A stretch of DNA of 64,000 nucleotides from an uncultured Methanosarcinales archaeon (GCA_963843555.1 CAWJKV010000011.1:1-64000), one strand, 5' to 3'. Shown: positions 16,750 through 33,386, counted from the first letter of the stretch. Notes: a model not told the origin generated them from the sequence alone. Program-made: numbers and translations.

Positions 16750-17721
16750 TTGGATAAGCTTGAGCTTGTGATGAGAAATACGGAAGAGATAGTTACAGTG
16801 GATGAACTCAAGGGTTTGCTGGAAAGGACCCAGCGCCCCCGGGCTTATGTGGGTTATGAGACCAGCGGCAAGGTCCATCTGGGCCACATGCTGACCGCCA
16901 ACAAGCTCCTGGACCTGCAGAAGTCGGGATTTGATGTGGTCGTCCTTTTGGCCGATCTGCATGCCTTCCTCAATGAGAAGGGAACTCTGGAAGAGGTACG
17001 CAAGACTGCAGACTACAACCGGGACTGCTTCATGGCTCTGGGGCTGGACCCGGAGAGGACGGAGTTCGTTTACGGCACAGACTATCAGCTCAAGCCTGAA
17101 TATATGCTCAAGATTCTGCAGATGGCCAGGAACACCACCCTCAACAGAGCCAGGCGGAGCATGGATGAGGTCAGCAGAAACGCTGAGAACCCCATGGTCT
17201 CGCAGATGATCTACCCGCTCATGCAGGCCATCGACATTGCCGACCTCAAAATCGACCTGGCTGTAGGCGGCATAGACCAGCGCAAGATCCACATGCTGGC
17301 CCGGGAGGAGCTGCCGCGCCTGGGGCTGCCTGCGCCGGTGTGCATGCATACGCCCCTCATTCCGGGTTTGAACGGCGAGAAGATGTCTTCCTCCAAGGGA
17401 AACAACATCGCTGTGGACGAGCCGGCAGAGGATGTGGAGAAGAAGATCAAGAGCGCCTTTTGCCCGGCCAAGGTAGTGGAGAACAACCCCGTGCTGGCCA
17501 TATGCAAGTACCACGTCTTCCCCAGGATTGAGGCAGGGATGACGATCAAGCGGCCGGAGAAGTTCGGCGGGGATGTGCACTATGAGAATTACGAGAAGCT
17601 GGAGGCGGATTTCGTCTCCGGGGCTATGCACCCGATGGACCTCAAGAAGGCCTGCGCAGAGTGCATGAACGAGATACTGGCGCCGGTGAGGGAGAAGATG
17701 AAAACAGGCCAAGGCTGTTGA
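16750..17721 (+). CDS. tyrS: Tyrosyl-tRNA synthetase (archaeal type)
   Basis: YVGYETSGKVHLGH (HIGH), KMSSS (KMSKS), GGIDQRKIHM. Confidence 0.97.
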   Translation: MDKLELVMRNTEEIVTVDELKGLLERTQRPRAYVGYETSGKVHLGHMLTANKLLDLQKSGFDVVVLLADLHAFLNEKGTLEEVRKTADYNRDCFMALGLDPERTEFVYGTDYQLKPEYMLKILQMARNTTLNRARRSMDEVSRNAENPMVSQMIYPLMQAIDIADLKIDLAVGGIDQRKIHMLAREELPRLGLPAPVCMHTPLIPGLNGEKMSSSKGNNIAVDEPAEDVEKKIKSAFCPAKVVENNPVLAICKYHVFPRIEAGMTIKRPEKFGGDVHYENYEKLEADFVSGAMHPMDLKKACAECMNEILAPVREKMKTGQGC

Positions 17722-17722
17722 G

Positions 17723-20217
17723 ATGAATTTTCTGAACAAAGAGGGGATACCTGAATCAGTAGATGTCGAAGCGATACTTAAGGGTTTAAACATAGCGATA
17801 GAAGAGGATATTGATTTTCTATTCAAAATAGGAGATCTATTTGTTCAAAAGAAGCGCTTTACGAGTGCGAGACGGATATTTCATAAAATCACTGAATTAA
17901 GACCCGAGTCTAGTATTGCTTGGTTTAAAGAAGGCAATGTACTAGACGAGATTTGAAAGATTTGATGACGCAATTTTTTGCTTCGATAAAGCCATAGAGA
18001 TAAACAGAAACTTTTTCGAAGCCTACTCGAATAAAGGAATTACTCTTGCGAAGATGAAGAATTATGAAGATGCATTAAGATGTTATAATAAAGCCACAAG
18101 ACTAAATGAGAATAGTCCTCTTGTATTGTATAACAAAGGCAAAGTATTTAGCGAATTATGTAAATATAGCGAAGCAATAAAATTTTTTGAGAGAGCCATA
18201 GAATTAAGTGATATAAAGTCAGAAGTTTATTTAGAATCACTGTTGTCAATGGGTTTTGTGCTCTCGAGAATCGGAAAATATGATGAAGCTATAGATTCCA
18301 ATGATAGAGCACTCAGAATATATCCCACGAATTGGAGATTATGGACTAATCAGGGAATAGCATTTGGAAAACTAAAGAGATATAACGAAGAAATCAGATG
18401 CTACAATAGAGCGCTTAGAGTAGATAAAAAACTGTTAGCACCTTTATATAACAAAGGAATCGCACTTACAAATTTAGGGAAATTATTTAGAGCTACAAAC
18501 TTTAGAAAATCGCACAAATATTTTAATGTTGCATATAAGTTTCTGACCGAGCTCTAGAATTGAATCCCAATAGTACAAGTGTGCAGCTCAGCATGGGCGT
18601 AATATTAGGTGAGCTCGATAGATTTGATGATGCATTGGAATGCTGTAATAAGGTAATTAGCAAAAATGAGAATTTCCCAGAAGCATATGGGAACAAAGGT
18701 ATCCTTTTTTTAAATGCCCCATAAATATGTTGAGGCTGAACGGGAATTACAGGTAGCTAGTGAGCTTTTTTTAAAAATGGATAGAAAAAATGATGCAAAA
18801 ATAGCAAGTGATTACGCTTCTTCTTGCAGTAAATGCCAACGATTTAATTTGCCAGATGAAACCAATTGATGAACAATTCTTGAGCTGCCTAAATAGTCAA
18901 AGTTTGGCAAAACTAAAAGAAGATATTTCATACGTTTCCAAGCGCATGACTGAAGTAACTAACGATTTTACAAAGAGGAAGTTACCAGGTGATGCCAAAA
19001 AGCTTCTATTTTGCAAAGAGGTGTGTATAAATACGCTATTGAATGCGATAAATTTTCAAGAAATAGATTTTAAACGGCTGGATGAAAGCAAATTGGTATT
19101 TGAAAAATGGGATTTGTATGACTATATCATTGCGGTTAATTCCCTCGATTCATTTATTCGCTATTCACATAAAATTTTTTAAAAAATTTGATAGCATTCC
19201 GAGCGAAGAAGAACCCGTTGTATTATCATTATTGAGGAAGATATATGTATTAGATGGTAATCTTACAAAGATATTTCTGATAAATTCAAGGGCGAATCCT
19301 ATGTCCCAAGGCCAATAGAATTAAACGGTCCAAAAATAATTGAGATCCCAATACCCTATGATATCAAAAATAAGTTTATAAAAATAGGTTTAGTTCAGTT
19401 AAAATTTGCATTAACAAAAACGTATCCATATGAATTAGAAAATAAAGAAATAGTAAAAGACAAAATATTCAGTGCTTTAAAGATTGCGGATAGTGAAGAC
19501 ATAGACATATTATGTTTTCCTGAATTATGTTTTTCTGAAGAATTCATAGAAGAAGCAAGGAAGTATAAGAATCGGATAATTATTGGAGGTACTTTCTACA
19601 GAGATGATTTTAATATTTGTCCAGTTCTGATGGGCGGTGAGGAATATGATGTGTTAAAGATAAACCCATCTCCATATTTTGAAACTGAATTGATTTCAGG
19701 AAAAGGAATGAAATCTGGCAATGACATCAAAATATTCTTTTCGACGAAGAGAGAGTTCAAATTTGCAGTATTAATATGTTGGGACTATATAAAAGAGAGC
19801 AATAGATTATATTTATCTGGCAACGGAGAAAAGCCTATTAATTTGATTATAAATCCACAATATAATTCCGATAAAGATCGATTTCAAAGAAAAGCGGATA
19901 CCGATTGCGAAAATTATCACACAGATATAATACAGATAAACGCATACAAATTTGGTGGTAGCTGCATTTTTGGAATCGAAAATAAAAATGTAATTGATAG
20001 ATTAAAATCAGCTGGATGCAGACAAGAAGATGGTTTTGTCTACAAACTTTGCGAAGCTAGCGGAGAAATGATGATTTTTTCTGACTTAGATCTTGCAGGT
20101 ATCGAAGTTCCATCATCTGTGGACTCCAAACCAAGGATCAAAATCAGGGGATGCTATATATACGAAAAGGATTCTTGGCAAAAAAAAGAAAGCCCATGGT
20201 GGATAGAATCATCATAA
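17723..20217 (+). CDS. Low-GC TPR-repeat plus nitrilase/carbon-nitrogen hydrolase domain protein, split by several frameshifts
   Basis: TPR repeats across 17723-18800; open frame 19261-20217 with IGLVQ, CFPEL, KINPS, VLICWDY (Glu-Lys-Cys triad). Confidence 0.7.
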
Positions 20218-20344
20218 AAAGCCTGTAGATTCACCGGTGCTTAGTCCAACTCGGATGTCCTGCACTTTCAAACTTTTAGAAGATTTTATAATTTCTCTCA
20301 ACTAAATTGAATTATAGATTTAGAAAATAAAATTAAAGAGAAGG

Positions 20345-20612
20345 ACAAAGACAAAGACTGCTATTTTGCGTTCTCTCCTGAGCTGTAGGGCTGCTACTCA
20401 GAGGGTGATACCTAGGAAGAAACCCTGGAAATATCAGGGATAGCCATCCGTCTACATGTAGAGGATCGACTGGAAAGCGGCGAAGAAGTCCCTCAGATGG
20501 AATCCGTCAGCTTGACTTCCCTGGATGTTGCTTTATGACGGATAGGCTTCTCAGGATAGATGCTGCTGATGCCATCCAGGTGCTGGAAAGGCAGGATTCT
20601 TTCTGGCTCGCC
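20345..20612 (+). pseudogene. Degenerate hicB-hicA copy
   Basis: Near-copy of ~28460-28730 with in-frame TAGs and indels. Confidence 0.75.
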
Positions 20613-20713
20613 AGACTTGAAGAATTTCTTGAATTGATGGAATAGCAGAATCATCTATCAGGCTTCAGTGGTATTCTGAACCGCCCGATTGAGGGCACAG
20701 CCACCTGATTACG

Positions 20714-20930
20714 CCACACATGCGAGCGCACGGGCGAGGGCAGGCGCATATGTGCGGGCGGGCCCGGGGACGAGCGGCCCCGCGTCCGAAGGCAGCGCAC
20801 GAGAATGCGAAGCGAGACCGGAAGGACGGCCTTAGCCAGGCAGCCAGTACGAAGCTGACAGCGCAAAAAGACATGCCATCACTTTCGCCCCGGTCACTAC
20901 AAAAAGACTTATATTTAAAGGTTTGATTGT
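20714..20930 (+). repeat. Family-A cassette-boundary repeat, copy 1 (long form with TATA box)
   Basis: gcgagcgcacgggcg...cgagcggccccgcgtccgaaggcagcgcacgaga...gagaccggaaggacgg...catgccatcactttcgccccgg...ttatatttaaag. Confidence 0.9.
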
Positions 20931-20951
20931 ATCACTGCGAGGCGACATGAT

Positions 20952-21776
20952 ATGCTGACAGGTGGAGAAAAGGGCATTCTCTTTCTTTTAATGAATAATA
21001 AAAGTAAAATGTCAAAGCTTCGCCTGGTCAAGCTCATGTTCTTGGTCTCAAATAGAATACCGCTTTATTACTTTGTCCCATACAAATACGGGCCGTTCTC
21101 CTTTCAGCTTTATCATGACCTATCACGTTTAGAAAGAGACGGTTTTGTATCTATTGATGACGATTCTGTGCATTTGGTGAAGACCGATCTTCCCTCGGTC
21201 GATCCCAAGATAAAAAACATAGTTCGCATGAACTCGGAGAGGTTTTCTGCCCTCGATGATAAAATGCTGCTTGATTATATTTATGAGGAGCACCCCGAGT
21301 ACACAATATTCAGCCAATACATGAAAAAAATGGATTACGACCGGAATTCATCAGGCATTGTAACCATAGGCTACGAGGGAAAGACGATCGATAAATTCCT
21401 TTATGAGCTGATAAAAAATAAAATAGGCATAGTTGCAGATGTTAGAAAAAATGCCTACAGCATGAAATTTGGATTTCAGCGAAATAAATTAGAAAGCTAC
21501 TTGGAGAAAATCGGCATCGATTACATCCATATGCCTGAGCTAGGAATTCCCAGCAGTTCACGCAAGGATCTCAATACTTATGAGGACTATCAAGCCCTCT
21601 TTGCCGGCTACAGACAGGACATTGAGACGAAACTTGACTGCCTGGAAAGAATTAAATCAATCAGCCAAAATAAAAAAGTATCGTTGATGTGCTTTGAGAA
21701 AGATGTTAAGTACTGCCATAGAGGGGTAATTGCAGAACGACTCAGGGAAAGCGGAGTCGAGGTAATCGACCTATGA
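20952..21776 (+). CDS. Protein with an N-terminal Panacea/DUF4065-like domain and a C-terminal DUF488 domain
   Basis: KLMFL...YKYGPFS; TIGYEG, DVR, ELGIP, LMCFE...CHR. Confidence 0.8.
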   Translation: MLTGGEKGILFLLMNNKSKMSKLRLVKLMFLVSNRIPLYYFVPYKYGPFSFQLYHDLSRLERDGFVSIDDDSVHLVKTDLPSVDPKIKNIVRMNSERFSALDDKMLLDYIYEEHPEYTIFSQYMKKMDYDRNSSGIVTIGYEGKTIDKFLYELIKNKIGIVADVRKNAYSMKFGFQRNKLESYLEKIGIDYIHMPELGIPSSSRKDLNTYEDYQALFAGYRQDIETKLDCLERIKSISQNKKVSLMCFEKDVKYCHRGVIAERLRESGVEVIDL

Positions 21777-22612
21777 CCTGGGAAAAGAAACGAGTGCTGG
21801 TGACAGTAACCGCCTACCCCGAAAAGAGCAAAAAATACGGCCAGGTCGTTTGCACCATCGGCCTCACAGAAGAAGGGGACTGGATTCGACTCTATCCGGT
21901 GCCTTTCAATGTCTTTTCCGGACCGCAAAAACTCAGAAAATATGATTGGATCGAAGTTGAATGCAAGAGAGCAGAGGAAAAGCTAAGCCGGAAAGAGAGC
22001 TATCGCATCAGAGATGCCTCTTTGAAGATCGTCGACAGAAGCCTCAGTTTGGGGAAGATCAAGGGAAGAGTGGATTGGAATGAACGCAATAAGCTCGTGC
22101 TCAGTCATGTCGCACCGTCTCTTGAAGACCTTCAGGCCAAATTTGATGAAGATAGGACATCGATTGGTCTGATTAAGCCTGCAGAAGTTCTTGAGTTTTA
22201 TAGAAAAGGAAATCTCCAGATATATCAAGATCCAAGAGCATTTCAACAATCCCTTTTCGGGACGAAGATTCCAGAGATAGAAGAAATACCTCACCTCTTC
22301 GGATACAGGTTTAGGTGCAATGGATGCCAGTCAGGAAAAGAGCATAACATTCAATGCGAGGATTGGGAACTACTTGAATCCTATAGACGTTGGGGCAAGT
22401 TATACGGTGATGTGAATTTACTTTGGGAGAAACTGCAAGATAAATATTTTAAATCTATGGTGGGCAGCGACCTTTACTTCTACGTCGGAACATTCTCTCA
22501 ATTTCCTACGTGGCTGATTGTAGGTTTATATTACCCACCCAAGCAAATTGCACTTCCTAGAAAATCTCAAAATCGCACATTAGATGAACTATTTGAAAAA
22601 AACCCTGGATAG
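21773..22612 (+). CDS. Conserved hypothetical protein translationally coupled to DUF488 (OB-fold-like, CxxC)
   Basis: ATGA overlap; VCTIGL...WIRLYPVPF; FRCNGC...CEDWE. Confidence 0.75.
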   Translation: MTWEKKRVLVTVTAYPEKSKKYGQVVCTIGLTEEGDWIRLYPVPFNVFSGPQKLRKYDWIEVECKRAEEKLSRKESYRIRDASLKIVDRSLSLGKIKGRVDWNERNKLVLSHVAPSLEDLQAKFDEDRTSIGLIKPAEVLEFYRKGNLQIYQDPRAFQQSLFGTKIPEIEEIPHLFGYRFRCNGCQSGKEHNIQCEDWELLESYRRWGKLYGDVNLLWEKLQDKYFKSMVGSDLYFYVGTFSQFPTWLIVGLYYPPKQIALPRKSQNRTLDELFEKNPG

Positions 22613-22699
22613 CTGATTTGCCTGAATAAGGCTGGCACGATATCTTCTTGCTCAATACGAAAGCCTGGAGGACTCTAACAGCCCTCTTGCTCGATCCGA

Positions 22700-22870
22700 C
22701 CATCTACCGAGGCCCAGCCGCCCGATGGCCTCCTGCCCACCCGGGCACGCTGGCCCACGTGCGAGCGCACGGGCGCGGGCAGGCGCATGCGTGCGGGCCC
22801 TGGGGCGAGCGGCCCCGCATCCGAAGGCAGCGCACGAGAGTGCGTTGCGAAACCGGAAGGATGACAGGGC
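22700..22870 (+). repeat. Family-A repeat, copy 2
   Basis: Same core; hairpins GGGGC-GAGCG-GCCCC and GCAGCGCAC-GAGA-GTGCGTTGC. Confidence 0.9.
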
Positions 22871-22899
22871 GGAAACTATCAGACTTATCGGTCAGATAA

Positions 22900-23226
22900 T
22901 CACGGAGGTTCGAATCCGCCAAATCGCTCCTTCAATTCTGCCATCTGAGCAGGCGTAAATATTGCGGCTGCGTTATACACCCGATCGTGGTGATCGAAAT
23001 GCAGGAAAACAATTCGGTCTTCGATAATCGCATAAATTATGACAAAAGGATCGACATGCACGCCGCGTAAACCCTTCAGCTCGTTCCTTTTCGGAACTCC
23101 GATCTCGGGATTTTCGATGATGTCCGAGATCTTCCCTAGTACTTGTTCCTCCAATGCCTTATTCTTTCGGATTAGTTTGTGAAACTTCTTATCAAATTGG
23201 CGAGTTGTTGTGTATGAGAAGGTCAT
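22900..23226 (-). CDS. RelE/StbE-family toxin
   Basis: TTRQFDKKFHKL...NPEIG...LRGVHV...HHDRVY. Confidence 0.8.
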   Translation of the reverse strand: MTFSYTTTRQFDKKFHKLIRKNKALEEQVLGKISDIIENPEIGVPKRNELKGLRGVHVDPFVIIYAIIEDRIVFLHFDHHDRVYNAAAIFTPAQMAELKERFGGFEPP

Positions 23227-23253
23227 GCAACGGAATGAAGACAACAGTTTGAA

Positions 23254-23418
23254 CTAAAGGTTCTTGAGATGATCCAGCAGCTCTTCTTTACTCTTGAAAT
23301 CTTTTACTCGGCCAGCTTTGTAGTCTTCAACGCCCTTTAATATTCCTTCAACCAGGTCATCTTCTTTGGAGGCATCCAAGAAGACAACATTCTTTACTCG
23401 CCGATCAGCGCTCGCCAT
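23254..23418 (-). CDS. Small antitoxin upstream of RelE (54 aa, below ORF-track cutoff)
   Basis: Hand translation MASADRRVKNVVFLDASKEDDLVEGILKGVEDYKAGRVKDFKSKEELLDHLKNL. Confidence 0.7.
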   Translation of the reverse strand: MASADRRVKNVVFLDASKEDDLVEGILKGVEDYKAGRVKDFKSKEELLDHLKNL

Positions 23419-23559
23419 TGCACATACCTTACCTTGGTTCGCTAAATAGATTTTGTTCGAGAAACGTTTTCGAGGCTCCGCATATTTCAGCTAGAAATGC
23501 CGCCCGTTCAGGCTAGCGAGCCCAGGCCCATCTGGGCGCTCCATACCTATGTGCTGGGT

Positions 23560-23652
23560 GCATGAGCGCGCCTGGACCACATGCAGGCCACCTACGCGAG
23601 CGGCCCCACATCCGAGGGCAGCGCACGAGAGTGCGTTGCGAGACAGGAAGGA
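23560..23652 (+). repeat. Family-A repeat, copy 3 (degenerate 5' part)
   Basis: gcgagcggccccacatccgagggcagcgcacgagagtgcgttgcgagacaggaagg. Confidence 0.85.
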
Positions 23653-23696
23653 AAGGGTGAAATGCTATGACCTCATCGTCTTTAGAGAGGAAAACT

Positions 23697-23984
23697 ATGA
23701 GCGACCAGATGCAGCCTGTTCGTGAAAAGATAATAGGTATCCTACACAGGAATAATGTAAAGAAGGCATCTTTTTTCGGGTCTATCGTGAGGGGTGAGAT
23801 GACCGAAGAAAGCGATGTAGATCTATTGGTCGAATTTGAAGGCAAAAAGAGCCTTCTCGATCTTGCCCATTTGAAAAATGAGCTGGAAGATGCCATAAAC
23901 AGACGAGTAGATGTTCTGACTTACAAATCGCTGCACCCCCGTCTCAAAGAGAGAATTCTAGCCGAGCAAGTGCCGATAATATGA
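23697..23984 (+). CDS. Minimal nucleotidyltransferase (MNT) antitoxin
   Basis: FGSIVRGE...SDVDLLVEF. Confidence 0.9.
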
Positions 23985-24334
23985 AGAAAGATTCCGGCGT
24001 TTTCCTGGAGCACATCCTGGATAGCATCGAGCTTATCGAGAGCTATTCCAAAGGAAAAACCGAACGGGACTTGATGGAATCGGTCGGCTTGCAGGACCAA
24101 ATCATCAGAAGGATCGAGATAATCGGGGAAGCCGTGAAAAATCTGCCAGAGGATCTGAGAAGAGATCATCCTGAGGTTCCCTGGAGAGATATGGCAGGAA
24201 TGAGGGACATCGTAGTCCATCAGTATTTTGGGGTGGATCTTGAGTTTGTATGGCAGGCGGCAACAAAGGATTTTCCGGAACTGAAGGAGAAGATCCCGAA
24301 GATACAGGAAGATCTTGGCAACGAGGCCAGGTGA
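23981..24334 (+). CDS. HEPN (DUF86) RNase toxin
   Basis: IIGEAVK...RDIVVHQYF (RxxxxH). Confidence 0.9.
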
Positions 24335-24435
24335 ATGAGAGGGCGCCACTGCGGTGGAGGTCTACGACGACCAGATCGAGATCGTAATACCTGGCAAGCT
24401 GCCGGAAGGTACAGGCCTATCTGGGCGAACTTAGC

Positions 24436-24546
24436 CCCACATGCGAGCGCACGGGCGCGGGCAGGCGCATGCGGGCGGGCCCTAGGGCGAGCGGCCCCGC
24501 ATCCGAAGGCAGCGCACGAGAGTGCGATGCGAGACAGGAAGGACGG
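24436..24546 (+). repeat. Family-A repeat, copy 4
   Basis: Full core, nearly identical to copy 2. Confidence 0.92.
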
Positions 24547-24668
24547 AAAGTGCATCAAGCAGAAAAGATCGTTAAGCCGGTCAAGTCTGAGATTTTTATG
24601 ACCAGTCCAAATGTGAGTCTCGCATCATATTTATTTACTATCCGGCCTTTGCTAGATCAGAGGAGAAG

Positions 24669-24962
24669 ATGAAAACCCTTCAAGAGATCGAAAGTATTCT
24701 TAGAGACCAGAAGCCAATCCTCAGGCAAAGGTTCGGGGTTTTAGAGATTGGCATCTTCGGCTCTTTCGTACGAGGCGAACAGAAGGATACCAGCGACCTG
24801 GATTTGCTTATCGATTTTGAGAAGCCAATCGGCCTAATCAGGTATGTGGGATTGCAGAACTATTTGAGCGACAAGGTCGGAGAGCGGGTAGATCTGGTCA
24901 CAAAGTCCGGCCTCAAACCGAGAATAGGCGAGCATATCCTTAAAGAGGTAATTTACGTATGA
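24669..24962 (+). CDS. MNT antitoxin
   Basis: FGSFVRGE...SDLDLLIDF. Confidence 0.9.
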   Translation: MKTLQEIESILRDQKPILRQRFGVLEIGIFGSFVRGEQKDTSDLDLLIDFEKPIGLIRYVGLQNYLSDKVGERVDLVTKSGLKPRIGEHILKEVIYV

Positions 24963-25306
24963 AGGAAAGGGATTACGGGAGTTATATTGAGGATATTATC
25001 GAGCATATGAATTATGCTGAAGAATTTATAAGAGACACAACTTTTGAAGAATTCGCAAACGATAAGAAGACTATTCTTTCAGTGACAAAGTGCATAGAGG
25101 TTGTGGGCGAGGCGACGAAGCATGTTCCAGATTCGATCAGAGAAAAATATCCCGAGATCCCTTGGCGTGACATGGCAGGAATCAGAGATAGGCTCGTCCA
25201 TGGCTACTTCAAAGTGAACCTTGAGATTGTTTGGACGACTGTGACTGTGGAATTTCCTGAACTTCGTCTCATGATGGAAAATGTATTGACCGATGTAGAT
25301 CTATAG
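24959..25306 (+). CDS. HEPN (DUF86) toxin
   Basis: RDRLVHGYF. Confidence 0.9.
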   Translation: MKERDYGSYIEDIIEHMNYAEEFIRDTTFEEFANDKKTILSVTKCIEVVGEATKHVPDSIREKYPEIPWRDMAGIRDRLVHGYFKVNLEIVWTTVTVEFPELRLMMENVLTDVDL

Positions 25307-25345
25307 CGAAAAAGAAAATACAGTTTATATAATTGATATCAGTTT

Positions 25346-25585
25346 TGGCCTTGGCTTAGAAACGATGATGCCAACCCGAGCAGGCGCATGCGGGCGGGCC
25401 CCTCGGGGGGCGATCGGCCCCGCAATCCGAAGGCAGCGCACGAGAGTGCGAGGCAATAACCGGAAGGACGGCGCTGGCCCCGGTCGGCCAGGCAGCCAAG
25501 ATGAACAGATAGCGCCAAATAATCATGCCATCACTTTCGCCCCGGACACCGCATAAGGATTTATATTTAAAAGCTTGATTTTACA
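25346..25585 (+). repeat. Family-A repeat, copy 5 (long form with TATA box)
   Basis: Core plus catgccatcactttcgccccgg and ttatatttaaa, as in copy 1. Confidence 0.9.
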
Positions 25586-25646
25586 TTCATTCGAGGCTGT
25601 GAATAGCCGGACTGATGAAATGGGGTCAAGTTTCAGAGGAAGTGTG

Positions 25647-25958
25647 ATGAAAACAGCGCTGTCCAAGAATGGCGTGCCCATCCGGTTGCCTGATGAGCGA
25701 TGGATACATCTGACTGAGGGTCACTCTGAGATGGCAGGATACTATTCGGAGGTCCTGGTGACAATAGAGGACCCAGATGGAGTCTATGAAGGCCGTTCAG
25801 GAGAACTCCTGGCAGTGAAGGAGATCCAAACTGATAAATATATAGTGGTAGTATATAAGGAAGTGAACGAAAAGGATGGTTTCGTGATCACTGCCTTCTT
25901 GAGCAGCAGGAAAAATCAACTTGAGAGGAGAACAAAGGTATGGCAGCGGCAGAAATAG
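25647..25958 (+). CDS. Putative RNase toxin (BECR-like) paired with DUF2283
   Basis: IRLPDERWIHL..H.EM...FVITAF; overlaps next gene. Confidence 0.65.
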   Translation: MKTALSKNGVPIRLPDERWIHLTEGHSEMAGYYSEVLVTIEDPDGVYEGRSGELLAVKEIQTDKYIVVVYKEVNEKDGFVITAFLSSRKNQLERRTKVWQRQK

Positions 25959-26191
25959 AAGGCATTGAAAAGATTTTGGCATTGGTGCCTCATCTTCTGA
26001 GCATACCCCAAAAGAAGATCTGGGTCGATTACGATGAGACGGCCGATGTGCTCTATGTGAACTTCAAGGAGCACAGCCATGCCGATGATTCCGATCTGAC
26101 GGATGACGACGTCATAATCAGGTACGAGAAAGGGCAGGTCGTGGGAATGACCTTCCTTAATGCCAGCAAGAGGCAGAACCTTCAAGGCTAG
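25940..26191 (+). CDS. DUF2283 family putative antitoxin
   Basis: YDETADVLYV...VVGMTFLNAS. Confidence 0.8.
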   Translation: MAAAEIEGIEKILALVPHLLSIPQKKIWVDYDETADVLYVNFKEHSHADDSDLTDDDVIIRYEKGQVVGMTFLNASKRQNLQG

Positions 26192-26415
26192 CTGCAATCA
26201 TCCATTCAAGGAGAGGTCAGATTCAACTGAGACGCCTTGACAATCTCTTTTGGACCGCGTAAATGTCCTGGATGATCCGCAATGGGCAAGCGGTATCGAT
26301 GAACATTTTTCTATTGAACAATGACGCAAACCAACGGGATGCCAAATCGAAACGCGGTCCGTTCAAGCTTTTCATCGACCTGGGTCCGAAGCGCTCGCCC
26401 AACCGGCCATTTCCA

Positions 26416-26526
26416 GGCCCAAATGCGGGCGCATAGGCGCGGAAAGAAGCATGCGTGCGGAGCCGTGGGGCGAGCGGCCGCCCTCGAGCATCGCATGGGA
26501 ATGCGAGGCGAGACCGGGAGGGGGAG
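26416..26526 (+). repeat. Family-A repeat, copy 6 (diverged)
   Basis: gcatgcgtgcgg...ggggcgagcggcc...gcgagaccggga. Confidence 0.75.
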
Positions 26527-26654
26527 CTCAGCTGAGGTGCACGGCTGCTGACTAATCGGGATACCACTGGGCGAGACTAAAAACCAGTCTGACAGGCCAA
26601 TGATAATGATATAGGGCATAGGTTTATTTTCCAAGAAGACCGCATATCAAATAA

Positions 26655-26870
26655 ATGCAGCAGATAAAGATAATAATAGAAAAGCACATGGACGGTTATA
26701 TTGCCTATCCGATCGGCATTAAAGGTATCGTAGTGGGAGAAGGCGATACATATGAAGAAGCCCTCGCCGATGTGAAATCCGCCATTCAATTCCACATCGA
26801 AACCTTTGGCAGGGAAGCTATTGAGATAGACGGAATCACCGAGACCTTTGTGGCCGAAGTGGTGGTGTGA
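26655..26870 (+). CDS. hicB: HicB-family antitoxin
   Basis: GEGDTYEEALADVKSAI. Confidence 0.85.
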   Translation: MQQIKIIIEKHMDGYIAYPIGIKGIVVGEGDTYEEALADVKSAIQFHIETFGREAIEIDGITETFVAEVVV

Positions 26871-27105
26871 CGAAGTTTCCCAGAGACGCGCCTAAAAGAA
26901 AGGTAATCAAAGCCTTGGGGGCATTGGGCTTCGAGGTAATCCGGGAAGTGAATCACATTTCCATGAGCAGAATCAATCTAGATGGAAGCAGGACGCCTCT
27001 AACCTGCCGAACCACAAAGAAATTAAAGGTTCTACCCTGTTGTTGATCTTAAGGCAGGCCGGAATAACGAAGGAAGAATTTATCGAAGCATTCAACGAGC
27101 TGTGA
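26867..27105 (+). CDS. hicA: HicA-family toxin (one frameshift near 27003)
   Basis: KVIKALGALGFEVIRE.NH ... PNHKEIKGSTL..ILRQAGI. Confidence 0.8.
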
Positions 27106-27130
27106 TTCTCCAGAGCGCCAATTGCTGCTC

Positions 27131-27195
27131 AGCCTTGGCCTTATTAATCCTTATTTTGGATGCCAACCCACTTCAGATGGCAGCGTATGGAGAAA
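27131..27195 (+). repeat. Internally deleted family-A remnant
   Basis: gccttggc...gatgccaaccc matches the left flank of copy 5; cagatggcagcgtatggaga resembles ccgaaggcagcgcacgaga. Confidence 0.5.
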
Positions 27196-27269
27196 ATCCT
27201 AGCATCATGTATGAGCTATACCAAGGAGGCTAAGCTTTGCGGTATTATTTCCACAACTTCCGCATATTG

Positions 27270-27767
27270 CTAAGGTCTCCAGATTTGAAGCCATTTCACA
27301 CCGCTAAAATCTCTGTCATTTGATGCCATTGTGTTTACATCTTCCTGTTTCATAGTTGCCAGATGAAGAGCGTCATTAGATAGGAGTCCGTATTTCTTGG
27401 AGTACCTTAGTGCCAACTCAAAAATGCTTTCATCAATTCCTACAATCGTCAGGTGATTGATCTGCTTTATCTTATCGATTGCAGCCCATGCTTTAGTCGA
27501 ATCCCTCACTAACTCCGGGTCTTCCTTCAGGCATTTCGAAACAGATCCAGGACTTATGCTTTCCCTTTCCACGATTTCCGCTATTAAAGACCTATGAAAG
27601 ACTTCGTTGCACACAAGAACTGAAGTAATACCCTTATATTCGCCATCATTTATGGATTCAAGAAGGCACTTCGATGAAGTGCCAAACTTCCAATGACCGG
27701 ACACTGCATAAAGTAAAATATTTGCATCAATAAAAATAGTTGTACCTGGTTCGATACGACAAGGCAT
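27270..27767 (-). CDS. vapC: PIN-domain (VapC) toxin
   Basis: IFIDANIL...DALHLAT...SNDRDF. Confidence 0.9.
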   Translation of the reverse strand: MPCRIEPGTTIFIDANILLYAVSGHWKFGTSSKCLLESINDGEYKGITSVLVCNEVFHRSLIAEIVERESISPGSVSKCLKEDPELVRDSTKAWAAIDKIKQINHLTIVGIDESIFELALRYSKKYGLLSNDALHLATMKQEDVNTMASNDRDFSGVKWLQIWRP

Positions 27768-27955
27768 CAGATTGGCTCCAAATCAGGGCTCTCAATGATC
27801 TCATCCAGCCATTGTTTGTTCTGAATCTTTATTATGCCGTAAAGTTGGTCGACGGGATTTTTCTTCACCTCAATCTCGACCAAGTCGCCTTCCTTTAAGT
27901 CTAGCTTTTCCAATGGCTTTAGGACGCTATTTTCATAGATCGCTTTGACAAGCAT
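27767..27955 (-). CDS. AF2212/DUF104-like antitoxin
   Basis: KAIYENSVLKPLEKLDLKEG. Confidence 0.88.
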   Translation of the reverse strand: MLVKAIYENSVLKPLEKLDLKEGDLVEIEVKKNPVDQLYGIIKIQNKQWLDEIIESPDLEPI

Positions 27956-28117
27956 CGAACCACCATCAGTATTTTGTCGCTGAAGATTAAAAACCTGCCT
28001 ATTTTAGGTTTTTCAAACAGGAGACTGAGACTGCGCTCAGAGCAGTTCCTGGACATCGAAGGCAAGCTGAAAGAGGCAAAATAACGGCGGATTTGTTTGA
28101 AAATGCTGATCAATCTA

Positions 28118-28285
28118 TCATCTACCAAGGCCCGAACCGAGAGAACCTACCTATCCTGGGGCGCTTGGCCCTCATGCAGGCGCACAGGCGCACGGGCAAG
28201 CGCGTGCGGGCCCTGGGGCGAGCGGCCCAGCAGCCGAAAAGGCAGCCAACGAGAATCGAAGCGAGACCGGGATGATGACAAGGAC
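28118..28285 (+). repeat. Family-A repeat, copy 7
   Basis: Starts catctaccaaggccc (copy 2: catctaccgaggccc); core gggccctggggcgagcggccc; ends gcgagaccgggatgatgaca. Confidence 0.85.
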
Positions 28286-28380
28286 AGGGAGCATTTTGTA
28301 GGGATGTACCTTGCTAATGAAAACGATTCGCCAGAATTGCATGGCAAAGAATATTACTTTTGCGGATAGTATGCTGCTAC

Positions 28381-28656
28381 ATGAATCATGCCGAAGAGAC
28401 AAACCTCTCCAGAGAGCTCGTGAGCAATAAGGCCAGAGTCTACCGTTTTTCAGTGGTTATTGAGAAGGACAGAGATGGCTATTTTGCGTTCTCTCCTGAA
28501 CTGCAGGGATGTTACTCACAAGGCGATACCTATGAAGAAACCCTGGAAAATATCAGGGATGCCATCCGTCTACATGTAGAGGATCGGCTGGAAAACGGCG
28601 AAGAAGTCCCTCAGCCGGAATCCGTCAGCTTGACTTCCCTGGATGTTGCTGTATGA
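28381..28656 (+). CDS. hicB: HicB-family antitoxin
   Basis: PELQGCYSQGDTYEETLENIRDAI. Confidence 0.88.
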   Translation: MNHAEETNLSRELVSNKARVYRFSVVIEKDRDGYFAFSPELQGCYSQGDTYEETLENIRDAIRLHVEDRLENGEEVPQPESVSLTSLDVAV

Positions 28657-28792
28657 CGGATAAGCTTCCCAGGATAATGCTGCTGATGCCATCCGTGTGC
28701 TGGAAAAGGCAGGATTCTTTCTGGCTCGCCAGAGTGGGAGCCACAAGATCTACAAGAATGCAGAAGGAAGAAGAACTACTGTGCCATTTCAT
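28653..28792 (+). pseudogene. hicA: hicA, frameshifted and truncated at a repeat remnant
   Basis: LEKAGFFLARQSGSHKIY...TTVPFH then breaks off. Confidence 0.75.
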
Positions 28793-28809
28793 GCGAGACA
28801 GAAAGGACG
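28791..28809 (+). repeat. 3' tip of a family-A repeat fused into hicA
   Basis: atgcgagacagaaaggacg versus atgcgagacaggaaggacg in copy 4 (one mismatch). Confidence 0.7.
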
Positions 28810-28871
28810 TTGCGGTCATAAATGGCGGCAGCTAATTTTGAACTGGCCACCAACCCAGGAAACGCTGCAAA

Positions 28872-29369
28872 TCAGGGTCTCCAGAGTTCCAGCCAATCTA
28901 CTCTCTCGAAATCCCGATCATTGGATGCCAGAATGTTCAGTCCAACAATTTTCATTGTCGCAGCATGAATAGCATCTGTCGCAAGAAGTCCATACTTCTG
29001 AGAGAATTCTAAAGCCAGATCTAAAGCATCTCTTTCGACCCCTATGATCGTAAGGTTCTCGATCTGGGCAATATCCTCAATGGCAACCCTGGCAGCACTC
29101 AATTTCTTAATCACGTCAGGATTATCTTTGAGATATTTTATGGCAAACTTGGCATCTATGTTGCACTTCTCGAAAAGTTCTGCGATCATGACTCTGTGAA
29201 ACACTTCATTACATACAACAATGGAAGTGACGCCTGAATACTTGCCATAATTGATATCTTTTAAGAATTTGGTGCATGGTTGCACATATTTCCAGTGCTC
29301 CAGGATCTTGTAAAGAAAAATATTGGCGTCAATAAAGACTGCTGTCCCTGGCTGGAGTGCATTATGCAT
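28872..29369 (-). CDS. vapC: PIN-domain (VapC) toxin
   Basis: VFIDANIF...DAIHAAT...SNDRDF. Confidence 0.9.
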   Translation of the reverse strand: MHNALQPGTAVFIDANIFLYKILEHWKYVQPCTKFLKDINYGKYSGVTSIVVCNEVFHRVMIAELFEKCNIDAKFAIKYLKDNPDVIKKLSAARVAIEDIAQIENLTIIGVERDALDLALEFSQKYGLLATDAIHAATMKIVGLNILASNDRDFERVDWLELWRP

Positions 29370-29557
29370 CAGAACGGCCCCAGCTCAGGGCTATCTATGA
29401 TCTCATCGACAATATCTCTCTGAGAGATTTTAACCAGGCCACCTAATCGATCTACCGCATCCTTTTTGACTTCAATTTCGACCATATCACCCTCCTTAAG
29501 GTCGAGCTTTTCTAATGGCCTTAGAACACTATTTTCATAAACTGCCTTGACAAGCAC
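29369..29557 (-). CDS. AF2212/DUF104-like antitoxin
   Basis: Paralog of 27767-27955. Confidence 0.88.
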   Translation of the reverse strand: MLVKAVYENSVLRPLEKLDLKEGDMVEIEVKKDAVDRLGGLVKISQRDIVDEIIDSPELGPF

Positions 29558-29625
29558 GAGATCACCATTATAATTTCAATTTCCTGGATTAAATACCTGC
29601 CTCTCTCAAGCTTCATAGGACAGAG

Positions 29626-29814
29626 TTGGATCTGATGGAATCGATCGGCCTGCAGGACCAGATTATCAGAAGGATCGAGATAATCGGGGAAGCTGTGAAA
29701 AATCTGCCAGACGATTCTGAGAGTGGAACATCCAGAGGTTCCCCGGCGAGACAGGCAGGAATGAGGGAAATCGTAGTCCATCAGTACTTTGGTGTGGATC
29801 TTGAGTTTGTCTGA
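29626..29814 (+). pseudogene. Internal fragment of a HEPN gene
   Basis: Near-copy of ~24066-24250 with indels. Confidence 0.8.
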
Positions 29815-29905
29815 GGACTTTATACTTCTCAGACCTCCTACAAAAGAATAGCGAGGGGCCATGAGTACGGTCCAGATCACGGCTGGCCAGTCGCTTATCA
29901 ATCGC

Positions 29906-30728
29906 TTAAGTTTTGAAGAACGCGAGAAGGTCTTCGTTGACCTGGTCCTTGAGGGTCGTGCACATGCCGTGTGGCGCACCCTTGTAGACCTTCAGCCTGG
30001 CGCCCTTGATGAGCTTGGACGACCGCATGGCCGAGTCTCCGATCGGCACGATCTGGTCGTCGTCGCCGTGGAGGATGAGCGTCGGGACATCGATCTTCTT
30101 GAGGTCCTCAGTGAAATCGGTCTCGGAAAACGCCTTGATGCAGAAGTAGGACGCCGGCAAGCCGGCCATCATCCCCTGGAGCCAGAACGACTCGCGAACG
30201 CCTTCCGAGATCTTTGCTCCCGGCCGGTTATAGCCGTAGAACGGCATGCTGAGATCCTTCCAGAATTGCGATCGGTCGGCAAGAACTGAGGCGCGGATCT
30301 GATCGAATGCTTCGATCGGCGTCCCTCCGGGATTAGCGGCAGTCTTTAGCATCAGAGGCGGCACAGCGCCGATAAGCACTGCCTTAGCAACGCGTTTCGT
30401 GCCATGGTGGCCAATATAGCGGGCGACTTCGCCGCCGCCCGTCGAATGGCCGACATGAATCGCGTTCTGCAGGTCGAGCGTTTCGACAAGCATCGCCAGG
30501 TCGTCGGCGTAGGTGTCCATGTCGTTCCCATTCCAGGGCTGGCTGGATCGGCCATGGCCACGTCGATCGTGGGCGATGCAGCGATATCCTTGAGCGGCCA
30601 GAAAGAACATCTGGTCTTCAAATGCATCCGCAGAGAGCGGCCAACCATGGCTGAAGACTACTGGCTGTCCTCTGCCCAGTCTTTATAGTAGATTTGCGTG
30701 CCATCTTTGGTCGTGATCATGTCCATAT
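29906..30728 (-). CDS. Non-heme chloroperoxidase-like alpha/beta hydrolase (frameshift near 30680)
   Basis: [37 protein letters not shown]. Confidence 0.88.
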
Positions 30729-30757
30729 GAAATACTCCTTTTTGGGTACCAATAGTG

Positions 30758-31567
30758 CTATCCAATAGCCGTGGCGTTTGCTGCATCCATGATCAATTGT
30801 GCAACCTCAGCAGGGTGAGAGACCAGCGAGGCGTGGTCTGACGGTATCGAGACAACCTCCTTGGCTCCTATGCGTTCTGCCATGAAGCGCTGCAAGTCGG
30901 GATTGATTATCCTATCGTTCTCTGATAGCAGATACCAGGAGGGCTTGGACTTCCAGGCTGCCTGGGTGGCTCTTTCGCCGAAAATGCTTGCCGAAAGCGG
31001 CTTTTGTACGGCAGCCATGACGCGGGCTGCAGTAGGATCTATATCCTGAGCGAACGATTCTGGAAAGGCCTTTGGATCGATCCATAGGAATCCGTAAGCA
31101 TCCGGGCGGAGGTTTGCCTGGCCGGGTGCAGCAGGCATTCGTCCATTGAGTTCGCCAAGGACTTCTCCCTCGTCTGGAGCAAACGCTGAAATATAAACCA
31201 GTCCGACAACATTGGATGCATTAGCTCCTGCTTCAGTTATCACCGCGCCTCCATAAGAGTGACCAACGAGAATCGTGGAACCATTTTGCATAGCTAATAT
31301 GCGACGTGTCACTGCAGCATCATCAGCCAGAGATGTCAAGGGGATCTGCACAGCGGTGACGTTGTAACCTTTTTCTTGCAGCAGCGGTATGACATTGCTC
31401 CAGCTTGATCCGTCGGCCCACGCCCCATGAACCAACACGACATTTACGGGTATCATATCTACACCTTGGGAATCGTTGATTGATTGCACCTGTGCTTGAG
31501 CACTAGATCCTATCAGAAATGCCAAAAAAACCAGCACAGGAACGATCGGAAAATATTTGCATATCAT
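30758..31567 (-). CDS. Secreted alpha/beta hydrolase
   Basis: Signal peptide; VLVHGAWADGS, GHSYGG, SDHASL. Confidence 0.88.
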   Translation of the reverse strand: MICKYFPIVPVLVFLAFLIGSSAQAQVQSINDSQGVDMIPVNVVLVHGAWADGSSWSNVIPLLQEKGYNVTAVQIPLTSLADDAAVTRRILAMQNGSTILVGHSYGGAVITEAGANASNVVGLVYISAFAPDEGEVLGELNGRMPAAPGQANLRPDAYGFLWIDPKAFPESFAQDIDPTAARVMAAVQKPLSASIFGERATQAAWKSKPSWYLLSENDRIINPDLQRFMAERIGAKEVVSIPSDHASLVSHPAEVAQLIMDAANATAIG

Positions 31568-31706
31568 TAAAATCCAGCCTCACTATGGTAATAGTATACG
31601 TTTAAGTATAAATAACTTTGAGGATCGAAACATTAGAATATCTTAACCTTGTGATCTTTAAAGAGCATTTTGAGAGATGCCGATCTAACAGTTGAATAAT
31701 TTCTTT

Positions 31707-31822
31707 GAAGGCAGCACAAAAGAATGCGAAGCAAGACTGGAAGGACGGACTTCGCCAGGCAGCAAGGATGAACTTGTTGCCAGAAGCATGCCATCACTTC
31801 GCCGGGAGACTGCAAAAAGGAT
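31707..31822 (+). repeat. Family-A repeat 3' half marking the right border of island 1
   Basis: gaaggcagcac...gactggaaggacgg...gccaggcagc...catgccatcacttcgcc. Confidence 0.8.
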
Positions 31823-31876
31823 CAGATTCAAAAAAAAATGACAGGGAGCAAAAATAAAACCCGGTCAAGAGTTTTT

Positions 31877-33386
31877 CTATCTGATGAGAGTCTTTCCGCT
31901 CATTGCCTCAGGCTGGTGTATATGCATAAGCTGCAGAGCTGTCGGCGCGACATCCGCCAAAATGCCGTCCTGGCGCAGGCCGTACTTTATGCCATCCTCT
32001 ATTATCAGCGAGAAGGGCACTGGATTTGTAGTATGAGCGGTATGCGGCTGGCCAGTGGTCAGATCGGTCATCTTTTCCGCGTTGCCATGGTCCGCGGTGA
32101 GCAGAACTGCGCCCCCTTTTTCCAGGATTTTATCCACGATCGTTCCCACACACTGATCCACAACCTCGACCGCCTGCACAGCCGCGTCGAATACGCCGGT
32201 ATGGCCCACCATATCGGGATTGGCGAAATTGAGGACAATGAAGTCATACTTGCCGGAATCGATGCAGGCCATTAGCTCATCCGTAACCAGGTAGGCGCTC
32301 ATCTCAGGCTGCAGGTCATAGGTGGCAACTTTAGGAGACGGTATGAGAACGCGATCCTCTCCGGGATTGGGCAGTTCTTTGCCGCCATTGAAGAAGTAGG
32401 TGACATGAGCATACTTCTCAGTCTCTGCTATGCGCAGTTGCGAAAGATCGCATCGGCTTATGACCTGGCCCAGGGTGTCGCTCAGGTTCTGCGCCGGGAA
32501 GGCGATGGGCACATCCAGGCTGGCATCGTATTGGGTCATACAGGTGTAATAAACCCGCATCGGTTTTATGGAAAAGTCCTGGAAATCCCCCTCAACAAAG
32601 GTTCTGGTAATCTCGCGCGCTCTGTCGGGCCGGAAATTAAAAAAGATGATGCTGTCTCCGTCCTGCACCAGACCATTGCTATCCACCACAGTCGGCTGGA
32701 GGAACTCATCATTCTCGCCTCGCTCGTAGCCGTTCTCCACTGCGATCTTTGCCGTCTCTGCCCTGCAGCCTAAACCCTCCGTCAGGCAGCGGTAGGCCTT
32801 CTCCACGCGCTCCCAGCGCTTGTCTCTATCCATGGTATAATAGCGGCCGCTGACTGTGGCCACCTTGCCGGTGCCTATCTGCTCGAACTTCTCTTCCAGC
32901 TCCCGGAAGTAGGTCAATGCGCTCCGAGGCGGCACATCCCTGCCATCGAGAATGGCGTGCACATAAACGTTTTTCAGATCCTGTTTTTTGGCCATCTCCA
33001 GAAGCGCATAAAGGTGAGTGTTGTGGCTGTGCACCCCTCCGTCGGAGAGCAGACCGATCAGATGCAGCTTGCCGTCTTTTGCCTTCGACCATGGCTTCCA
33101 GCAGGACAGGGTTCTTGCCAAAGCTGCCATTCTCCACGGCCAGGCTGATCCTGGTATAGTCCTGATAGACGATTCTGCCGCCCCCCAGGTTGAGATGCCC
33201 CACCTCTGAGTTGCCCATCTGGCCTCGCGGCAGGCCTACGGCCAGGCCGGAAGCTGCAAGAGTTGTGGTTGGAAAGTTCTTCCAGAATCGCTCCAGGTTA
33301 GGCTTGCGGGCCCTGGCTATGGCATTGCCCTTCTCGATTGGGCTTATGCCGAAGCCGTCCATGATAATAATAGCTAAGGGCTTCAT
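31877..33386 (-). CDS. gpmI: 2,3-bisphosphoglycerate-independent phosphoglycerate mutase (frameshift near 33090)
   Basis: [33 protein letters not shown]. Confidence 0.95.

Follow-up and report, generated by a model that had tools for sequence, protein, structure and literature searches.

We examined an array of toxin–antitoxin (TA) and defence modules that are separated by copies of a GC-rich repeat, family A, in a Methanothrix genome from an uncultured Methanosarcinales archaeon. The window, i.e. the whole stretch of DNA analysed, comprises 64,000 nucleotides (GCA_963843555.1, CAWJKV010000011.1:1-64000; contig C11:1-64000) of an assembly of 18 contigs and 2,683,679 bases that is 82% complete. 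Gene modules were identified by Pfam, and defence genes also by PADLOC. A profile built from the window copies (nhmmer) detected eight copies of the repeat in the whole assembly, all on contig C11, all on the + strand and all confined to the 11 kb between 20.7 and 31.8 kb. Searches with blastn and for direct repeats agreed on the copies and their location, and the only other trace in the assembly was one weak match of 37 nt on contig C5 (E 0.003). Together with two degenerate copies (27131 and 28789, also +), the array thus contains eight clear and two degenerate copies, each at the boundary of a TA or defence module (table 1). The initial annotation had reported about ten GC-rich copies on one strand between a DUF488 pair, RelE, two MNT-HEPN modules, a DUF2283 pair, two HicBA and two PIN modules. 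Number, strand and position of the copies were reproduced, Pfam agreed with the module content, and the clustering in a single 11-kb stretch is the opposite of the genome-wide scatter that would have spoken against such an array.

Table 1. Repeat copies, gene modules and flanking features in the window, by position.
Feature	Position	Strand	Evidence	Remark
tyrS	16750..17721	+	Pfam tRNA-synt_1b, E 5.9e-55	conserved proximal anchor of the island
Low-GC (30-34%) insert between tyrS and array	18000..20340	+	composition	
TPR gene within low-GC insert	18054-18557	+	Pfam TPR	
Nitrilase-like open reading frame (ORF), 195 aa, within low-GC insert	19630-20217	+	PADLOC CARF_nitrilase-type, E 2e-22	
hicBA pseudogene copy	20344..20650	+	repeat-search families D6, D11, D13, D15	79-94% identical to 28462-28740
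Repeat copy 1, long form	20652..20931	+	nhmmer 20706-20848, 112 bits; repeat-search family D12 extension	
DUF488 pair	20952..22612	+	Pfam DUF488	PADLOC candidate defence system PDC-M19A/B
Repeat copy 2	22650..22880	+	nhmmer 22750-22865, 111 bits; aligned to hsdM ends	degenerate hsdM-end/left-arm start
ParE-type toxin (22900-23244) and small upstream ORF (23254-23418)	22900..23418	-	Pfam ParE_toxin, E 2.6e-10	
Repeat copy 3	23480..23658	+	nhmmer 23540-23658	variant
MNT-HEPN module a	23667..24334	+	Pfam NTP_transf_2/Polbeta and HepT-like	
Repeat copy 4	24400..24558	+	nhmmer 24429-24558, 115 bits	
MNT-HEPN module b	24669..25306	+	Pfam	
Repeat copy 5	25347..25583	+	nhmmer 25347-25500; D12	left arm truncated, long right arm, TATA-like box
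PBECR2 nuclease-like gene and DUF2283	25575..26191	+	Pfam	
Repeat copy 6	26300..26541	+	nhmmer 26410-26541	left-arm start visible in alignments
HicB-like ORF (26655-26870) and HicA-like ORF (26867-27046)	26655..27046	+	tblastn hicB, 42% identity; Pfam HicA_toxin partial, E 0.004	weak matches
Repeat copy 7	27131..27170	+	by eye against other copies	degenerate remnant, below nhmmer threshold
PIN toxin and AF2212-like antitoxin, first	27270..27955	-	Pfam	
hsdM 3' remnant (~65 nt), then repeat copy 8	28021..28292	+	nhmmer 28164-28292; alignment to intact hsdM ends	
hicB (28360-28656) and 5' part of split hicA	28360..28795	+	tblastn hicB, 90% identity	
Repeat copy 9	28789..28812	+	sequence	core 3' end only, fused into hicA
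PIN and AF2212-like, second	28872..29557	-	Pfam; repeat-search D7, D9	75% identical to first
HEPN gene fragment	29626..29814	+	D8, D10; Pfam HepT-like partial	91-93% identical to 24067-24252
Two alpha/beta-hydrolase genes	29906..31567	-	Pfam	inside hicA-splitting block
hicA 3' remnant	31625..31705	+	tblastn residues 57-72 with stop, 31658-31705	
Repeat copy 10, distal edge of array	31704..31832	+	nhmmer 31704-31767, model positions 77-140	core and long right arm only
gpmI	31877..33130	-	Pfam iPGM_N, E 4.8e-80	distal flank

We clustered the segments between repeats, which yielded 15 cassette families seen at least twice. The order of these families differed between loci (window, 0-4-2-1-10; L029, 0-6-8-10-3-2-5-4-1-7; L031, 2-5-6-7; L026, 0-4-0; L033, 1-0). 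The ParE cassette recurred together with its own downstream repeat in loci L029, L026 and L038, and in three genomes that distinctive repeat is followed by MNT-HEPN a, MNT-HEPN b or the DUF488 pair. The left arm of copy 3 travels with it, as BLAST segments covering 22881-23652 matched L029 and L026, where the downstream cassettes differ. Contigs from four metagenome runs joined the window cassettes in still other orders, and the ends of the joints lay within repeats: 22816->28257, with only a core between the two sides; 24527->28792, at the site of copy 9, with 10 shared letters; and 22850->25524. A further joint, 20745->22783, fell in left arms. Joints that went back along the window may stem from paralogues or from differing cassette orders.

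To locate the switch from one cassette to the next, junction pairs from different loci were compared by position relative to a core anchor. Where two junctions shared the upstream cassette and differed in the downstream one (168 ordered pairs), identity was 0.66-0.84 from -220 to about +20 and 0.54 thereafter, the background being 0.48. Where they shared the downstream cassette and differed in the upstream one (126 pairs), identity exceeded the background only from about -40. Left arms are linked to the cassette upstream of them and right arms to the one downstream, and the linkage switches in a narrow conserved core of about 60 nt, the main exchange zone. Upstream linkage ended at +17 to +28 (n = 6), +49 (n = 1), -120 to -42 (n = 8) or -170 to -155 (n = 8) in 23 filtered pairs, the last group of which may reflect only the border between coding and non-coding sequence. 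Downstream linkage started at -34 to +3 in 12 of 24 pairs, at -98 to -52 in four, at -173 in one and at +78 to +119 in seven. Since orders differ and linkage switches inside the repeat, in its narrow conserved part, the proposal of a cassette-like array with the delimiting repeat as its site of re-assortment holds, and the constant order without fixed-position junctions that would have contradicted it was not observed. Re-assorted cassettes with break points in the repeat are integron-like behaviour. Strong concerted evolution of the repeats was also considered and was not seen (core identity 0.77 within and 0.75 between genomes).

The repeat unit exceeds the 110-130 nt of its visible core: it extends a further ~120 nt upstream, often into the 3' end of hsdM, and reaches a full length of 230-400 nt. 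Many left arms begin with the terminal 65-250 nt of hsdM in degenerate form, including its stop codon. An intact hsdM (Pfam N6_Mtase) stands immediately before the first repeat of locus L025, and nucleotide similarity places hsdM likewise before the first repeat of L036 and L044; the repeat unit of L036 is nothing other than the spacer that separates hsdM from the DUF488 pair. Judged by these alignments, the repeat is a duplicate of the native spacer downstream of the type I restriction gene hsdM, together with the hsdM 3' end. A tRNA scan of the window found none, so that the repeats are not copies of tRNA ends.

Conservation was highest over about 50-60 nt around GGCAGCGCACGAGAATGCGA, and mean pairwise identity was 0.75 in the core as against 0.47 and 0.33 in the left and right arms. 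The degenerate copy 7 keeps 14 of 20 core positions (27146-27165). Right arms vary between 30 and 110 nt and are extended by a further ~100 nt at the 3' side in three window copies (20.7, 25.3 and 31.7 kb). A TATA-like TTATATTTAAA ends the extension right before a + strand gene in the 20.7- and 25.3-kb copies, the former showing the full layout of left arm, core (20791-20816) and right arm with TATA-like box; at 31.7 kb the TTATATTTAAA-type box is degenerate and no + strand gene lies behind it. Left arms are joined by each cassette family at its own point (ParE about -180, MNT-HEPN b -120, MNT-HEPN a -105, HicBA -75; others carry long hsdM fragments), which points to independent fusions and subsequent spread of the resulting unit. 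A 7-nt box, G[AG]T[GT]A[AG][CT], was enriched at both outer ends of the unit, with 19 hits at -200 to -140 and 28 at +20 to +80 compared with 8 in the other fourteen 20-nt bins, so that direct copies of the box bracket every cassette. The left box belongs to the coding end of hsdM. The right box did not prove to be a second copy of that end, as only 5 of 71 right arms scored above the 95th percentile of shuffles.

Family A was present in 26 of 59 Methanothrix genomes, the present one included, and absent from all 16 same-class genomes from outside the genus. Within each of 23 loci from 20 genomes all copies lay on one strand, about 0.6-2 kb apart. The array was found downstream of tyrS and in the same direction, as in the window, in all ten other loci with tyrS in view, and the tyrS genes adjoining these arrays are 83-91% identical in nucleotides to that of the window. 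A search of species genomes with the core pattern returned arrays in Methanothrix/Methanotrichaceae records and single matches in GC-rich bacteria, which we took as chance. True copies were present in 18 of 78 metagenome loci with the core pattern; they were co-oriented in 17, and the checks made found no integrase in the 18. The exception, L193, has oppositely oriented copies because its contig is palindromic, with two mirror halves that each run from the 3' part of tyrS through a repeat to a PIN cassette. On two further metagenome contigs, L173 and L214, array cassettes abut internal tyrS at two different junctions, which may reflect chimeric assembly or else genuine rearrangement or duplication of the tyrS-array region.

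We also found a second repeat family, B, in 2 of the 59 genomes (G052 and G008), never together with family A. The tyrS of G052 is 87% identical to that of the window and is followed by a PIN-AF2212 cassette and a PBECR2-DUF2283 cassette that are 85% and 83% identical to those of the window. The repeats that part them have a left arm recognizably related to that of family A and a different conserved core. Family B arrays carry HicBA, PDC-M19, MNT-HEPN and PIN modules and no recombinase. The family B loci are L132 (G052:C1:3248000-3249900), L135, L136 and L137, and G052 has two chromosomal loci. Other direct-repeat families of 45-95 nt occur downstream of tyrS in L134 (G022:C1, 7800-8300 and 14300-15350), in a genome with neither family A nor B, and G005 has no array after tyrS.

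The array decays as well as shuffles, as a hicB pseudogene, a split hicA and a HEPN fragment attest. A third hicB (20344-20650) has two in-frame stops by tblastn. The second hicA is split, with residues 9-48 of 76 at 28676-28795 and residues 57-72 at 31658-31705 (tblastn), and its halves are parted by 2.86 kb (28,796-31,657) holding a PIN module, the HEPN fragment and two hydrolase genes; position 28792 is joined to 31658 in contigs of two of the four metagenome runs (X1 and X15). The HEPN fragment duplicates part of MNT-HEPN module a. Among the intact cassettes, the DUF488 pair (PDC-M19A, E 2.8e-79; PDC-M19B, E 4.7e-61 in PADLOC) is the most widespread family, with 8 segments in the compared loci, and sits at or next to the tyrS-proximal end wherever that end is in view. 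That this pair might be a hidden recombinase was ruled out by its match to PDC-M19A/B; NCBIfam gave no match.

The locus had been described as lying between tyrS and gpmI. The tyrS side is indeed a shared anchor, while gpmI adjoins the array in this genome alone, without a match in the other compared loci, and the far flank differs elsewhere. Between tyrS and the array, the window carries a low-GC stretch (18000-20340) that is probably a fragment of some other defence system; PADLOC relates its 195-aa ORF to the nitrilase domains of CARF- and reverse-transcriptase-linked defence proteins. The corresponding content varies in relatives and includes type I restriction-modification, OLD nuclease, SIR2-TPR, DUF5677 and IS200 genes. 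The locus is a general defence island, and the arrays or flanks of relatives (L022, 8057-8677; L023, 9437-10873; L031, 1315-3447 and 6738-8309) also encode Shedu SduA_C, Schlafen/AlbA_2 ATPase, SIR2-TPR and adenosine-deaminase-like proteins. Cumulative GC skew reaches its maximum at about 27000-29000 of the window, where the coding strand switches from mostly + to mostly -.

Archaeal integrons are known (Ghaly et al. 2022, PMC9668308), and we examined the repeats for integron features. An attC pair RYYYAAC/GTTRRRY at 50-150 nt spacing was present in 0 of 72 copies, neither box was enriched over shuffles, and DNA hairpins in the right arms did not exceed those of shuffles (mean z -0.21; 5 of 72 below -1.5). 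RNAalifold found 0 conserved pairs in 52 copies from 20 genomes, single-copy folds of six + strand copies were no better than dinucleotide shuffles (z -1.9 to +0.6), and Rfam, scanned against 18-34 kb of the window, gave no match with E up to 1. Integrase matches (PF00589) were absent from contig C11 and occurred in this genome only on C7 and C16. All three (C16:88376-89086, C7:225072-225617 and C7:116812-117126) look broken or partial, their defects being a frameshifted end, an in-frame stop and a fragment; an intact XerA may simply be absent from the incomplete (82%) assembly. No PF00589 match lay near the arrays of five out of five further genomes (G019, G068, G015, G063 and G066), and Pfam-scanned ORFs of ten array loci (L021-L026 and L135-L137 in full, L031 in part) yielded none either, only IS-type transposases. 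Y1/IS200 transposase genes of the own genome are on C2 and C5, unlinked to the array; an IS200-type transposase gene adjoins tyrS in G019. The absence of attC ends from the repeats and of an integrase from the window, stated in the initial annotation, was thus confirmed and extended to the whole contig, and the array is not a canonical integron. A tyrosine recombinase linked to the repeat did not turn up in the loci examined, nor did a HUH (Y1) transposase in this genome; the annotation had suggested looking for both. Because the attC, fold, Rfam and integrase tests were negative, the repeat is neither an integron, nor an attC-defined cluster of attC sites lacking an integrase (CALIN), nor a miniature inverted-repeat transposable element (MITE) or repetitive extragenic palindrome (REP), nor an RNA gene.

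The cassettes are likely exchanged by recombination inside the ~60-nt core, with no integron-type integrase, and we consider it about an even chance (probability near 0.5) that general homologous recombination is responsible. A cassette between two direct repeats would loop out as a circle with one hybrid repeat, and the circle would re-enter any repeat copy through a single crossover, so that every copy would keep one orientation. Deletions that fuse a module to a downstream repeat would create new cassettes, and TA modules would persist through addiction. Homologous recombination is favoured by the lack of a linked recombinase, by a long site without recombinase architecture and by exchanges outside the core; 8 of the 23 upstream change points fall inside the left arm, a homology-type sign, as are the 20745->22783 joint in left arms and the family-specific points at which cassettes join their left arms.

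Several observations weigh against this reading. The core is far more conserved than the arms (0.75 versus 0.47 and 0.33), for which homologous recombination alone is insufficient and a protein-binding or recombinase site would be an explanation. Frequent gene conversion is not evident, given that core identity is scarcely higher within genomes than between them (0.77 versus 0.75). The cassettes shared with G052 around a different core look like a change of recognition site, and the 7-nt box bracketing the cassettes could be the true crossover site. The initial placement of unrelated modules between copies is left unexplained by homologous recombination, and no circle or excision product was observed in the assembled contigs examined.

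Alternatively, a dedicated site-specific system may operate, in which an unlinked recombinase (XerA or another, acting in trans) reads the core or the 7-nt box and moves circles. We regard this as less likely, yet as a serious rival. It would account for the sharp switch of linkage in a core much better conserved than the arms, for co-orientation in 23 of 23 genome loci and 17 of 18 metagenome loci, for the weak gene conversion, for the direct box copies at both repeat ends around each cassette, and for two repeat families that have different cores around shared cassette types and never co-occur. Integrase-less CALIN arrays are, moreover, common among the archaeal integrons described in PMC9668308. 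Against it, no locus examined has a linked recombinase gene, the three PF00589 matches of this genome look broken or partial, and the site lacks inverted-repeat architecture and a conserved hairpin; its repeats are long and plainly a duplicated native spacer plus gene end, and several break points lie outside the core. For the gene capture by a trans-acting enzyme that was first proposed, neither a linked recombinase nor an excised circle was seen. Should such an enzyme exist, Methanothrix might, as a tentative picture, possess its own cassette system unrelated to integrons, with a composite site (box, left arm, core, right arm, box) that evolved from the spacer downstream of a restriction-modification gene, an unlinked recombinase that captures and shuffles TA and antiviral modules, and lineage-specific cores A and B.

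An unlikely origin of the array is a decayed stack of larger elements that carried a terminal type I restriction system and integrated in tandem beside hsdM, with later deletions that spared the TA modules and att-like junctions. The hsdM 3' fragments of varying length before many repeats, the truncation of left and right arms at family-specific points and the deletions and fusions of the window (split hicA, HEPN fragment, hicB pseudogene) agree with such a history. Decay in place cannot explain why at least 15 cassette families recur intact in new neighbourhoods, and the arrays examined contained no integrase remnant. A scan of viral contigs with a core 20-mer gave a single match, inside a 980-aa ORF and without flanking similarity, i.e. 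by chance.

We think it very improbable that the repeat acts mainly in regulation or as an RNA (terminator, insulator, promoter leader, small RNA), with a boundary position unrelated to recombination. Its core is conserved, and in two long copies a TATA-like box precedes a + strand gene by about 20-70 nt. The same repeat, however, precedes genes of either orientation, linkage switches inside it, and the RNAalifold (0 pairs in 52 copies), Rfam and single-copy fold results offer no sign of a structured RNA. A MITE/REP-like mobile repeat inserted between pre-existing modules, the other proposal of the initial annotation, is largely refuted: the direct 7-nt box at both unit ends and the IS200-type transposase genes in this genome and beside tyrS in G019 would fit it, but the repeat has no copies outside the locus in 2.68 Mb, no terminal inverted repeats and no conserved hairpin, the unit includes hsdM coding sequence and its arms co-segregate with the neighbouring cassettes.

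Methanothrix species are among the main acetate-consuming methane producers of wetlands, sediments and digesters, and to our knowledge little is known of gene exchange in the genus. The array shows that an archaeon can maintain a rapidly changing, modular stock of TA and defence genes that follows integron grammar minus the integron's parts. If a dedicated enzyme is responsible, cassette platforms would have been invented a second time and independently; if homologous recombination suffices, a duplicated spacer would have taken on the role of portable homology and made a shuffling array out of a defence island. In both cases the system offers a testable model, with a defined site, 15 catalogued cassette families and two site families that can be compared. 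Our literature search found no paper describing the array; the main text of PMC9668308 omits Methanothrix, and its supplements may list a CALIN there.

Among known systems, REP elements, bacterial interspersed mosaic elements (BIME) and MITEs share with the Methanothrix repeat that they are short, GC-rich, non-coding and intergenic. The Methanothrix repeat differs in being neither dispersed nor palindromic and in occupying one strand and mostly one locus per genome. Minimal mobile elements and intergenic mosaic repeats of Neisseria are exchanged by homologous recombination. The resemblance lies in the strain-to-strain swap of modules through shared homology without a dedicated recombinase; unlike in Neisseria, the homology is an internal, iterated repeat in arrays of up to 10 copies, and we know of no natural transformation in Methanothrix.

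Elements without an integrase accrete in tandem at gene 3' ends in the case of the cis-mobilizable elements at fda of Streptococcus thermophilus and of tRNA-anchored arrays in archaea. The Methanothrix repeats similarly copy the 3' end of their anchor gene (hsdM fragments of 65-250 nt), and these direct copies part small recombinase-less modules downstream of and co-oriented with the anchor. They differ from accreted elements in that no integrase was found nearby, a protein gene belonging to a restriction system serves as anchor, each unit is a single TA module and exchange falls about 200 nt beyond the end of the gene.

The closest parallels are found with sedentary chromosomal integrons and CALINs, including the archaeal ones of Ghaly et al. 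2022 (PMC9668308). As in these, cassettes of 0.6-1.8 kb alternate with repeats that all point one way, the cassettes carry TA and defence modules facing either direction, repeat families are lineage-specific, cassette order differs between relatives, and most of the repeat moves with the upstream cassette. The Methanothrix array, in contrast, has no IntI, no attC R''/R' boxes (0 of 72) and no conserved hairpin, and its repeats of 230-400 nt derive from a gene 3' end plus the downstream spacer. The point of exchange also differs: linkage switches 6 nt from the repeat end in integrons and CALINs and in the middle of the repeat in Methanothrix.

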